A stretch of 64,000 nucleotides of DNA from a virus, in the UHGV virus genome UHGV-0098755; one strand, 5' to 3'. The notes beneath the pieces are model-generated. The model saw nothing but the letters and a program-made list of their open reading frames with translations, ran no database searches and was not told where the DNA came from. Below, piece by piece: positions 31,158 through 35,354 of this stretch. How positions within the stretch are numbered: position 1 is the first letter of the stretch; each line of letters begins with the position of its first letter. Position numbers and translations under genes: made by a program.

Positions 31158-34100
31158 ATGGCTACTTTAAAACAAATACAATTTAAAAGAAGCAAAACCG
31201 CAGGTGCACGTCCTGCTGCTTCAGTATTAGCCGAAGGTGAATTGGCTATAAACTTAAAAGATAGAACACTTTTTACTAAAGATGATTCAGGAAATATCAT
31301 TGATTTAAGTATTTCCGCTGGCGGTAATATCAGTGGAAATATCACTCAAACTGGTGATTATTTACAAAATGGAACATATAATCTTAATGGAAACCAGTTT
31401 GTTTATGCTGGTAAATATATTGAATTCCTGCCTAAAACCGCGGGTAATGGTGCTTGGGCAAACCAACATAAAAATAAAGCTCCTATCTTTACCGATTTGA
31501 GTTCAACTACTTCTACTTCAGAATACCATCCGCTAATTAAACAACGCTATAAAGATGGAACTTTTTCTGTTGGTACGTTAGTAAATGAAGGAAGTTTTAA
31601 AATTCAATATATCAATGAATCTGGTGATTCAAAATATTGGACTTTTAATCGAAACGGTAGTTTTATTGTAGATAATGGCAATATTGAAGCTCGTGCTGGT
31701 AATATTTCGGCTTCAGGTAATATTAACTCGGCAACTGGATTTGTTTCTGCTCCACAGATTAATACAAAAACCATAGTTTTTGATACAAAAGCCTTTGGGC
31801 AATACGATTCACAGTCATTAGTTCAATATGTTTATCCTGGAACCGGTGAAACAAACGGAATCAATTACCTTCGTAAAGTTCGAGCTAAATCAGGCGGAAC
31901 CATTTACCATGAAATCGCTTCTGCGCAGACCGGTAAGAATGATGAAATTTCTTGGTGGACCGGAAATACACTTACTACTAAATTAATGGGTCTTCGTAAT
32001 GATGGCGCAATGGTATTACGTCGTTCACTTGCTATTGGCACAATTACCGCCGACGAAAATACTAACAACTACGGTTCTCCTACTCCAATGGGAGAAAGAT
32101 ATATTGCTTTGGGCGATGCTGCCACTGGTTTAAAATACATTAAGCAGGGTGTTTATGATTTAGTAGGTAATTGGAATTCTGTTGCTTCTATTACTCCTGA
32201 CAGTTTCCGTAGTACTCGTAAAGGTATATTTGGTCGTTCCGAGGACCAAGGCGCAACTTGGATAATGCCTGGAACCAACGCCGCGCTTTTATCGGTTCAA
32301 ACACAAGCTGATAATAACAATGCTGGAGACGGACAAACCCATATCGGGTACAATTCTGGCGGTAAAATGAACCACTATTTCCGTGGTACAGGTCAGATGA
32401 ATATCAATACCCAACAAGGTATGGAAATTAACCCGGGTATTTTGAAATTGGTAACTGGCTCTAATAATGTACAGTTTTATGCTGATGGCACTATTTCTTC
32501 TATCCAACCTGTTAAATTAGATAACGAATTATTTTTAAATAATTCTAATAATACCGCAGGCCTTAAATTTGGCGCCCCTAGCAAAGTTGATGGCTCGAGA
32601 ACTATCCAGTGGAACGCCGGGACCCGCCCGGGTCAGAACAAAAACTATGTGACCATGAAAGCATGGGGTAACGCATTCGACTCCACTGCCGGTAATCGTG
32701 AAACCGTATTTGAATTGTATGACGGCCAGGGCTATCATTTTTGTTCTCAACGTTTAGCACCGACGGGTTCTGAAACTGTTGGTGCTCTTCAATTCAGAAT
32801 TTCCGGCGCTTTACGTGTGGGTGGTGGTATTATATCGGCTGGTTCTATTGCTACTGAATCAAGTTTAGTTGCTAATAATGGATTGTCTGTAAACGGACAA
32901 GCCAAATTTGGCGGAACAGCAAATGCATTGAGAATTTGGAACGCCGAATATGGCGCTATTTTCCGTCGTTCAGAAACAGCATTGCACATTATTCCTACTC
33001 TTAAAGACCAAGGAGAAAATGGCGAAATAGGTAATCTTCGTCCATTGAGCATCGCACTTCATAACGGTATGGTACAAATGCGCCATTCTGTCACGTTAGG
33101 CGATGATGGCAGAGGTGGCAATATGATTACCGTGGACAATGACAGCAAACTTGTCGTGGTAACTTCTAATGCCAGATTAAGCCCTAATTTCCGCATGCAA
33201 ATAGGTCAGTCATCTTATATTGATGCTGAATGTACTGATGCTGTTCGCCCGGCAGGCGCGGGTTCATTTGCTTCTCAGAATAATGAAAATGTCCGTGCGC
33301 CGTTCTATATGAATATTAATCGCACAGATACAAGTACTTACGTTCCTATTTTAAAACAACGCTATGTTCAAGGAAATAGCTGTTATTCTTTAGGTACTTT
33401 AATAAATGGCGGTAACTTCAGAGTTCATTATCATGAAGGTGGTGATAATGGTTCAACTGGTCCTTTAATTAAAGACTTTGGATGGGAATTTACTCGTTCC
33501 GGTGATTTTATATCTCCTAAGCGTGTTTCTGCTGGTGGTTCAGTTTATTTAGGTACGGATGGTAATATCACTGGCGGTTCATTACCTAACTTTGCTAACC
33601 TGAACACAACTTTAGAACGTAGAGTTAAGGTCGGAACTTGGTCCGGTAGTTCAACTGCAGGATGGTATAAATTTGCTACTGTAACTATGCCACAATCAGT
33701 TTCTACCGTCCAATTTAAGATTATAGGTGGTAATGGATATAATGCCAATTCACCAGAACAGGCTACAATTACTGAAGTAGTTCTTCGTACCAGTAATAAC
33801 AATCCTAAAGGTATTAACGCCACTTTATGGGGGCGCACGGGTAATGGATTTACTAATATAGCAACAATTAATACCTCCGGTGATGATTATGACGTTTATC
33901 TGTATGCTGGGACTTATGCAGACAAACTTATAGTTGAATATGACGCCACAGAAAATACCCGTTATATTTCGGTAATTGGACTTAATGGTGGATATCAAAC
34001 ACCAGTAACAGAATTACCCGCTGGTCATCTGCGCGGTCAAGTGTATATGATGTACTCTGATGCTCAGATACCTTATCCGGTCGGTGCTCCGATTCCGTGG

Positions 34101-34775
34101 CCGAGTGATTCAGTTCCTGCTGGATTTGCTTTGATGGAAGGTCAGACCTTTGATAAGTCCGCATATCCAAAGTTAGCTGTTGCATATCCTAGCGGTGTTA
34201 TTCCAGATATGCGCGGGCAAACTATCAAGGGTAAACCAAGTGGTCGTGCTGTTTTGAGCGCTGAGGCAGATGGTGTTAAGGCTCATAGCCATAGTGCATC
34301 GGCTTCAAGTACTGACTTAGGTACTAAAACCACATCAAGTTTCGACTATGGTACTAAGACGACAAGTAGTTTCGACTATGGTACTAAGACCAGTAATAAT
34401 ACTGGTGCTCATACGCATAGTTTGAGCGGTTCCACAAACACCGCCGGTGCGCACAGCCACACAAGCGCTCTTTATGCGGGAAGTAACAACTCTCCTGGTA
34501 CTGGTGCTATAAGAGGATCCGCCGGTTCTGGTAATACGCTTGGAACTTCTTCTTCTGGGGCACATTCGCACTCTATATCTGGTACTGCTGCAAGCGCAGG
34601 CGCTCACGCACATACTGTTGGTATTGGTGCTCATACCCATACAGTTGGTATTGGTGCTCACACCCATTCAGTAGCAATTGGTTCACATGGGCATACAATA
34701 ACTGTAAATAGTACAGGTAATACAGAAAACACGGTTAAAAACATTGCTTTTAACTATATCGTTCGTTTAGCATAA
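31158..34775 (+). CDS. 37: long tail fibre distal subunit gp37 (receptor-recognising tip)
   Basis: 1205 aa; [13 protein letters not shown]... N-terminus; C-terminal HxH His-box repeats ending [11 protein letters not shown]. Confidence 0.95.
34320..34391 (+). repeat. imperfect 30-nt tandem repeat inside gene 37 (encodes [10 protein letters not shown] x2 plus a partial copy)
   Basis: ggtactaaaaccacatcaagtttcgactat / ggtactaagacgacaagtagtttcgactat / ggtactaagacc. Confidence 0.7.
34614..34667 (+). repeat. 27-nt tandem duplication inside gene 37 (encodes TVGIGAHTH x2)
   Basis: actgttggtattggtgctcatacccat / acagttggtattggtgctcacacccat. Confidence 0.7.
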
Positions 34776-34778
34776 GGA

Positions 34779-34796
34779 GAGGGGCTTCGGCCCCTT
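34779..34796 (+). promoter_or_regulatory. UUCG-tetraloop stem-loop between genes 37 and 38, overlapping the gene 38 Shine-Dalgarno
   Basis: GGGGC-UUCG-GCCCC at 34781-34794 with flanking pairs; AAGGAGAGGGG precedes it. Confidence 0.4.
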
Positions 34797-34802
34797 CTAA
34801 AT

Positions 34803-35354
34803 ATGAAAATATATCATTATTATTTTGACACTAAAGAATTTTACAAAGAAGAAAATTACAAACCGGTTAAAGGTCTTGGTCTTCCCGCTCATTCAACAAT
34901 TAAAAAACCTTTAGAACCTAAAGAAGGATACGCAGTTGTATTTGATGAACGTATTCAGGATTGGATTTATGAAGAAGACCATCGCGGTAAACGGGCTTGG
35001 ACTTTTAATAAAGAAGAAATCTTAATAACTGACATAGGAAGCCCGGTTGGTATAACTTTTGATGAACCCGGCGAATTTGATATATGGACTGATGATGGTT
35101 GGAAAGAAGACGAAACATATAAACGCGTTTTAATTCGTAATAGAAAAATTGAAGAATTATATAAAGAATTCCAAGTATTGAATAATATGATCGAAGCTTC
35201 AGTTGCAAATAAAAAGGAAAAATTCTATTATCAAAACCTTAAACGGTTCTTTGCTCTTTTAGAAAAGCATGAGCATCTAGGTGGTGAATTTCCTAAATGG
35301 CCTGAAAAAGAACGGAAGCCTTGGTATAAGCGTTTATTCAGGAATTACGTATAA
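34803..35354 (+). CDS. 38: tail fibre assembly chaperone gp38 (T4 type)
   Basis: 183 aa, MKIYHYYFDTKEFYKEENYKPVKGLGLP... Confidence 0.95.
   Translation: MKIYHYYFDTKEFYKEENYKPVKGLGLPAHSTIKKPLEPKEGYAVVFDERIQDWIYEEDHRGKRAWTFNKEEILITDIGSPVGITFDEPGEFDIWTDDGWKEDETYKRVLIRNRKIEELYKEFQVLNNMIEASVANKKEKFYYQNLKRFFALLEKHEHLGGEFPKWPEKERKPWYKRLFRNYV

Follow-up and report, generated by a model that had tools for sequence, protein, structure and literature searches.

The collar domain (D10) of the T4 tail fibre protein gp37 comprises residues 811-881 and 1010-1026, the needle stem residues 882-931 and 960-1009, and the tip subdomain only the 28 residues 932-959 (Islam et al. 2019, PMC6957217). The T4 tip is noted for essential glycines (PMC6957217), and G964 has been reported to be structurally essential. 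By mutation, 14 residues matter for the binding of lipopolysaccharide (LPS) or OmpC: I933, N937, G938, T939, G940, V941, G942, G943, K945, S947, Y949, I951, Y953 and A955 (PMC6957217, PMC5221442). Among T4-type gp37 proteins, the head domain is the main site of difference (Vitt et al. 2024, PMC10844046), and gene 37 mosaicism is well documented in T-even phages (PMC3157838). In contrast, T2 gp37 (1341 amino acids) carries an S74 intramolecular chaperone and is accompanied by a separate gp38 adhesin; a study of Yersinia T4-like phages (PMC7917993) concerns adhesins of this T2-type gp38 kind. Here we describe gene 37 of the virus genome UHGV-0098755, analysed within a stretch of 64,000 nucleotides (the window). 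The gene is an ATG-started open reading frame (ORF) on the plus strand (31158-34775) and encodes a long tail fibre distal subunit of 1205 amino acids. The fibre is very probably of T4 type, with gp37 as its own adhesin, and assembled by recombination of modules that circulate in Tevenvirinae.

A T4-type collar and needle

The type of fibre was judged from gene 38 and from the domains of gp37. Gene 38 (34803-35354, plus strand) encodes a tail fibre assembly chaperone of 183 amino acids, 175 of which (96%) are identical in T4 gp38. A preliminary description of the locus, made from the sequence alone, had called it a T4-type chaperone, and this is borne out; by its similarity, the gene 38 product is not a T2-type adhesin. 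In gp37, a Pfam scan retrieved the Collar domain (PF07484, residues 976-1023, E = 9e-11) and did not find the S74 chaperone domain (PF13884), which T2-type homologues match. With a T4-type gp38 chaperone and a collar/needle end that lacks S74, gp37 itself should therefore carry the adhesin, in agreement with the earlier proposal that receptor specificity resides in gp37. As far as homology can tell, the fibre is T4-type, with gp37 as its own predicted adhesin, and not T2-type.

The protein's C-terminal part aligns with the T4 tip over its whole length. Residues 967-1205 matched residues 23-242 of chain A of the T4 tip structure 2XGF in a HMMER search (phmmer against the PDB, E = 4e-90), and the only gaps are a unit of 10 amino acids, a unit of nine, and three residues gained and three lost in the head. 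The N-terminal part of the collar (residues 971-1041, 34068-34280, plus strand) is covered by PF07484 and corresponds to T4 D10 residues 811-881 with the limits of PMC6957217; residues 991-1050 are 100% identical to T4 at the nucleotide level. From the 2XGF alignment, the ascending strand of the needle stem follows (residues 1042-1101, 34281-34460, plus strand), with His-x-His (HxH) motifs 1-3 at residues 1043, 1085 and 1099. After the head segment comes the descending strand (residues 1136-1188, 34563-34721, plus strand), with motifs 4-8 at residues 1136, 1150, 1159, 1168 and 1177. The chain then returns to the collar (residues 1189-1205, 34722-34772, plus strand) in a stretch identical to T4 residues 1010-1026 (limits from PMC6957217). 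The collar is thus split by the insertion of the needle, and the conserved C-terminus returns to it. The last 34 residues, including the final string of 12, are identical to those of T4, and residues 1136-1205 are identical to those of phage AV117 (70/70, 100%). The preliminary description was right about the T4-like extreme C-terminus and about the flanking HxH repeats, all eight of which are present with T4-like spacing.

The window fibre therefore shares with the T4 tip (2XGF, D10-D11) the collar, the out-and-back HxH needle, a head segment of 34 residues, the last 34 residues and an adjacent gp38. It differs in having eight HxH motifs, a head only about 29% identical, an insert of 143 amino acids before the collar and a divergent shaft at residues 61-205. 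Following the T4 model, gp37 would trimerize with the aid of the adjacent T4-type gp38 (and gp57A). The C-terminal 235 residues would adopt the T4 architecture, with the collar first, from which each chain would leave and return in the form of a long hairpin. Interdigitation of the three would give a needle held together by octahedral iron sites, with three HxH motifs per site. An extra outgoing unit of 10 amino acids and an extra returning unit of nine that contains an HxH motif would keep the hairpin in register while lengthening it by one repeat. At the turn, the 34 residues 1102-1135 would form a small head, rich in glycine, as the part in contact with the receptor. The head is of the TSALYAG type and, by analogy with AV117, would bind OmpC and the LPS core with a strain specificity unlike that of T4. 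The 143-residue module, common to T2-type gp37 and other fibres and tailspikes, would add a structural knob between shaft and collar.

Location of the additional residues

The length of 1205 amino acids, against 1026 for T4 gp37 in NC_000866, was given correctly from the outset, and the window protein is longer by 179 residues. We aligned it with T4 gp37 and with its two closest full-length GenBank relatives, from phages moha and AV117, and counted the gaps; identity was 69% to T4, 84% to moha and 82% to AV117. Relative to T4, a single block of 143 amino acids (residues 821-963) lies between shaft and collar, and the divergent N-terminal shaft (residues 60-210) contributes a net 17 residues. 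The middle shaft contributes none. In the needle stem, 10 residues (1070-1079) are a second copy of a 10-residue unit and nine (1163-1171) are a further VGIGAHTH(T/S) unit. The head segment gains three residues and loses three, for a net change of zero. The shaft accounts for 160 of the 179 additional residues and the needle stem for the other 19, which leaves none for the head. The preliminary description, which was concerned with positions 33990-34775 (the last 261 codons of the 1205-codon ORF), had placed the length difference in the tip; instead, it lies almost entirely in the shaft.

A head segment equivalent in position and size to the T4 tip

The preliminary description held that a short glycine/serine-rich linker had replaced a larger receptor-binding head domain present in T4. 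Neither half of this contrast holds. The predicted receptor-binding surface (residues 1102-1135, 34461-34562, plus strand), enclosed by HxH motifs 3 and 4, has 34 residues here and 34 in T4 (932-965), with which it is homologous, and the T4 tip subdomain itself is confined to residues 932-959 (PMC6957217). The 43-residue string that had been singled out (residues 1097-1139, 34446-34574) is indeed rich in these two amino acids, with glycine and serine making up 16 of the 34 head residues (47%) against 11 of 34 in T4.

Two independent alignments, one with 2XGF and one of full-length gp37, agree on the register, in which residues 1110-1126 correspond to T4 943-959. In both, G938, A950-I951, A955-G956, N959 and G964 of T4 are conserved in the window head; the structural glycines G938 and G964 are retained as G1108 and G1134. 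Overall identity is low, at nine of 31 aligned residues (about 29%). Of the 14 T4 receptor determinants, G938, I951 and A955 alone are retained, and the other 11 are replaced or deleted. By these comparisons, the window head is a homologue of the T4 head, at the same place and of the same length, with another surface exposed, and an altered fine specificity relative to T4 is plausible.

A flexible glycine/serine linker in place of the T4 head, with no folded head and with specificity radically altered or moved elsewhere, would be compatible with the low identity, with the composition and with the presence of one aromatic residue against four in T4. We nevertheless regard it as very improbable. 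The segment has the same length as in T4, whose tip is itself glycine-rich and has a subdomain of only 28 residues (PMC6957217), and it keeps the structural glycines. It also belongs to a discrete type conserved in 15 sequences with nine variable positions, which would not be expected of a free linker, and AV117, with the same head type, is viable and OmpC-dependent.

The head type was defined by comparison with other T4-type homologues, among which about 12 head types occur, with lengths of 32-67 amino acids. The TSALYAG type was found in 15 sequences (nine distinct), on fibres of 1061-1218 amino acids. It varies at nine positions only (residues 1109-1112, 1115-1118 and 1124). These align with T4 positions 939/942-945, 948-951 and 957 and overlap largely with the LPS and OmpC determinants. 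Variation largely confined to the likely receptor-contact sites would be expected if the segment folds into a receptor-binding surface, and would not be expected of a spacer. The DNA encoding the tip (34260-34775) is 96.7% identical to that of phage F2, 95.5% to AV117 and 91-94% to GiZh, JQD51, ECO07P2, ECCR664, PNJ-9 and S1P5QW. In the head itself, 32 of 34 residues are shared with GiZh and JQD51 and 27 of 34 with AV117; the F2 head has the two substitutions of GiZh and JQD51 plus one extra serine (35 amino acids). The window head departs from most relatives at two positions, with A1117 in place of serine and S1124 in place of glycine. The gp37 proteins of F2, GiZh, JQD51, ECO07P2 and AV117 resemble that of the window in having an eight-HxH needle and a TSALYAG head, with 92-97% identity in the tip DNA, and the insert module is present as well in those of F2 and AV117; all of them differ in their shaft modules.

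Likely receptor

Among phages with the TSALYAG head, receptor data come from AV117 only and indicate OmpC and waaC-dependent LPS. In plating experiments on ECOR4, AV117 failed on the delta-ompC and delta-waaC mutants and succeeded on delta-waaR (PMC10844046). By analogy, the window head most likely binds OmpC and the LPS inner core, as do T4 and AV117. Its strain-level specificity would depend on the polymorphic residues of the head and would differ from that of T4. The altered host range proposed in the preliminary description is thus plausible at the level of fine specificity, given that 11 of 14 determinants have changed, but the AV117 results give no sign of a change in receptor class.

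A primary receptor of another class than that of T4 and AV117, either another porin or a particular LPS core type only, is unlikely. It would fit the loss of most T4 determinants, the seven of 34 head residues that differ from AV117 at polymorphic and presumably contacting sites, and the diversity of recorded hosts of this head type (O111, O157, E. fergusonii and enteroaggregative Escherichia coli, EAEC). On the other hand, the one experimental result for the head type points to OmpC and the inner LPS core, and T4, AV117 and AV118 all use OmpC despite quite different head sequences.

Several points weigh against a T4-like, OmpC-binding fibre of modular origin as we have described it. The seven residues that distinguish the window head from that of AV117 belong to the probable contact surface, and OmpC is carried over to the window head by analogy. 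AV118, with a different head, also uses OmpC (PMC10844046), and head type and receptor do not correspond one-to-one. An AlphaFold2 model of residues 973-1205 as a monomer (alignment of 39 sequences) reached a predicted local distance difference test score (pLDDT) of 53 and a predicted template modelling score (pTM) of 0.18. The poor tip model is attributable to the prediction of a single chain from an interdigitated trimer; it gives no fold support, and the fold of the head therefore rests on an alignment at about 29% identity. Finally, the model of the insert described below is of only moderate confidence, and its role as a knob is putative.

Needle stem repeats

Both additional units of the needle stem belong to in-frame tandem repeats detected with Tandem Repeats Finder. 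In the ascending strand, a 30-nucleotide repeat of 2.4 copies (34320-34392, plus strand) encodes the 10-residue unit twice, one copy more than in T4 (the extra residues 1070-1079). In the descending strand, a 27-nucleotide repeat of about three copies (34602-34682, plus strand) encodes (A/S)H(T/G)H(T/S)V(G/A)IG, also with one copy more than in T4 (the extra residues 1163-1171), and this copy supplies the eighth HxH motif. The window protein thus has eight motifs, three outgoing and five returning, against seven in T4. The spacing is 39,11,[34],11,6,6,6 here and 29,11,[34],11,6,6 in T4, where the bracketed number is the head. The HxH motifs of the needle are predicted axial iron sites, and the needle would be one repeat longer than that of T4, with one more such site.

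The wider distribution of these patterns was surveyed in 99 clusters of T4-type gp37 from a collection of 5.8 billion proteins. The eight-HxH form was present in 89 of the 99 clusters, and the spacing 39,11,[head],11,6,6,6 was the commonest (85 clusters). The seven-motif pattern of T4, 29,11,[head],11,6,6, was restricted to five. In 85+4 clusters an outgoing segment of 39 residues is accompanied by four returning HxH motifs, and in five clusters one of 29 residues is accompanied by three. The two duplications are therefore coupled, which keeps the hairpin in register. Among T4-type adhesins in this survey, eight HxH motifs are the majority form and T4 is an unusual short form, so the window needle is no special expansion.

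Four T4-type clusters (P0044, P0084, P0101 and P0115) have only six HxH motifs and a much larger head of 67 residues (NRGNMEISG...), with the spacing 39,[head],6,6,6. The inner HxH pair is missing from each of the two strands, which shows that the boundary between needle and head is itself plastic.

Laboratory host-range mutants of T4 with duplications of a small gp37 domain were reportedly described by Tetart et al. 1996 (J Mol Biol 258:726), and we considered whether the window carries a host-range-expanding duplication of that type. The likeness to those duplications lies in in-frame tandem short units bounded by histidine motifs in the tip region of gp37; the extra units of the window differ in forming a matched pair in the stem and not in the head. 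This position, together with the prevalence of the eight-HxH form in nature, led us to reject the comparison.

A predicted jelly-roll insert before the collar

Most of the length difference from T4 is due to the 143-residue insertion (residues 821-963, 33618-34046, plus strand), predicted to form a jelly-roll beta-sandwich knob just before the collar. It lies mostly just upstream of the region considered in the preliminary description. The insert is 99% identical in protein and 98-100% in nucleotide sequence to those of moha and AV117, both Mosigvirus, and 70-86% identical to those of F2, TH54, TH57 and others. About 54% identity was found to a segment of T2 gp37, over 95% of the insert length. 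Among the best 120 homologues, the insert occurs in 26 T4-type and 20 T2-type gp37 proteins. In T2 gp37 the homologous module is located at about residues 820-960, much as in the window, but is followed by more shaft, whereas in the window it is fused directly to the T4-type collar and needle. An exhaustive HMMER search of 1.84 billion representatives matched the insert to 160 clusters. Eight matching representatives scanned with Pfam contained lambdoid side-tail-fibre domains, Gp34_trimer and S74. Some fibre proteins (for example, P0124, P0126 and P0128) align with the module at two distinct places, a sign that one fibre may hold it in tandem or repeated copies.

No Pfam model covers the insert, and a sequence search of the PDB retrieved no solved structure that matches it. 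AlphaFold2, with an alignment of 36 sequences, predicted a two-sheet beta-sandwich of about ten strands (pLDDT about 70-86), in agreement with the eight-stranded, two-sheet fold of the jelly-roll modules of phage fibres and tailspikes. In the same model, the collar part (residues 966-1045) had a pLDDT of 31-37, and the insert domain alone was interpreted. A C-terminal jelly-roll beta-sandwich of this kind is found in WceF of Pantoea stewartii (6TGF) and in Acinetobacter phage tailspikes (6C72, 8OQ0 and 5W5P), with 8-14% identity to the insert. There the sandwich follows a catalytic beta-helix, whereas the window insert sits in the shaft of a non-enzymatic fibre. From the predicted fold and its distribution, the insert is most likely a shuffled structural module that adds one more knob to the fibre.

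Tailspikes of this kind degrade glycans, as do exopolysaccharide (EPS) depolymerases, and in both the same fold is distal to the catalytic beta-helix. This position and the shuffling of the module among the fibres of unrelated phages could also be read as signs that the insert acts beside the tip as another receptor-binding site, of lectin-like character and with O-antigen or capsule glycans as conceivable ligands, and contributes to host range. We consider this rather improbable. The near-identity of the insert nucleotide sequence across different heads and genera (window, moha and AV117) is a better fit to a structural cassette than to a determinant of specificity. For the WceF sandwich, the best structural match, no glycan-binding role has been described, and its sandwiches are interconnected by salt bridges in the trimer (PMC7949094). 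Moreover, the scores to galectin and to carbohydrate-binding modules (CBM) are at the level of generic jelly-rolls. Slightly less probable again is the proposal that the insert is a lectin-like auxiliary site that moves between T2- and T4-type fibres as a host-range cassette, so that one polypeptide would bear two receptor-binding elements, a lateral glycan-binding knob and the OmpC/LPS head.

Gene 37 as a mosaic

A nucleotide comparison in sliding windows of 30 codons was used to follow the nearest relatives along gene 37. These were GiZh and T4 for residues 1-60, moha, AV117 and GiZh for residues 241-330 (94-98%), T4 for residues 391-420 (98%), moha and AV117 for residues 811-960 (98-100%), T4 again for residues 991-1050 (100%), and F2, GiZh and JQD51 for residues 1081-1205 (96-100%). 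The module boundaries are sharp, with the nearest relative switching abruptly.

The N-terminal shaft at 31338-31772 (residues 61-205) is about 25% identical to T4 (29 of 115 aligned residues) and about 85% identical to moha and AV117. In the alignment, it is a second module swap within the gene, near the junction with gp36.

Abrupt switches of this kind, and the fact that no phage in GenBank covers more than 86% of gene 37 in a megablast search, could arise if the unusual length were an assembly chimera of co-occurring T-even phages. This is hardly credible. The ORF is intact and all junctions are in frame. The exact 1205-residue protein is present in a public collection (P0002) on four contigs from three sources, the longest of 168,827 bp, and a 1203-residue homologue (P0003) is 89% identical. 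Isolated phages have gp37 proteins of nearly equal length and the same architecture (F2, 1204 amino acids), and mosaicism of this gene is known in T-even phages (PMC3157838). By all appearances, gene 37 of the window is a real recombinant allele of Tevenvirinae modules and not an assembly artefact.

Gene neighbourhood and the gene 37/38 junction

Upstream of gene 37 are a homologue of gp34 (1289 amino acids) and, at the positions of genes 35 and 36, ORFs of 371 and 220 amino acids. Downstream, gene 38 is followed by a holin-sized ORF of 218 amino acids and an ORF of 90 amino acids on the opposite strand. The order of this late-gene block matches 34-35-36-37-38-t-asiA of the T4 annotation, and many Tequatrovirus genomes match the flanking 12 kb at about 96% identity.

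The only Shine-Dalgarno-like sequence of gene 38, AAGGAG (34774-34779), overlaps the stop codon of gene 37 and is located about 24 nucleotides 5' of the ATG (34803). Between the two lies a stable C(UUCG)G hairpin (34780-34795, plus strand; RNA folding energy -15.6 kcal/mol, z = -2.9). T4 has a near-identical hairpin element, whose 3' arm has one C fewer. The arrangement presumably resembles the split ribosome-binding sites of T4 genes 38 and 25, in which a hairpin brings the Shine-Dalgarno sequence and the AUG together.

An antisense ORF of 110 amino acids (34335-34667, minus strand) was rejected as a gene, as it is wholly inside the repeat-rich needle coding sequence and has a low-complexity translation. 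That translation is rich in serine, threonine, arginine and cysteine, and looks like a by-product of repeated glycine, histidine and threonine codons on the sense strand.

Implications

All modules of this gp37 are already represented in sequenced phages, and by these comparisons the allele is a new mosaic combination of them. That T4-type gp37 proteins vary in their heads is likewise already on record (Vitt et al. 2024, PMC10844046). In practical terms the gain is modest: the domains of a further natural gp37 allele are now mapped correctly. For phage engineering, three junctions visible in the nucleotide sequence, at about residues 810/821, 965-990 and 1080, mark natural swap points for shaft, insert, collar and needle/head cassettes. 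Head positions 1109-1112, 1115-1118 and 1124 are candidate specificity sites for the TSALYAG type. For the family, the comparison shows T4 to be atypical among T4-type adhesins, a short form with seven HxH motifs and no insert.

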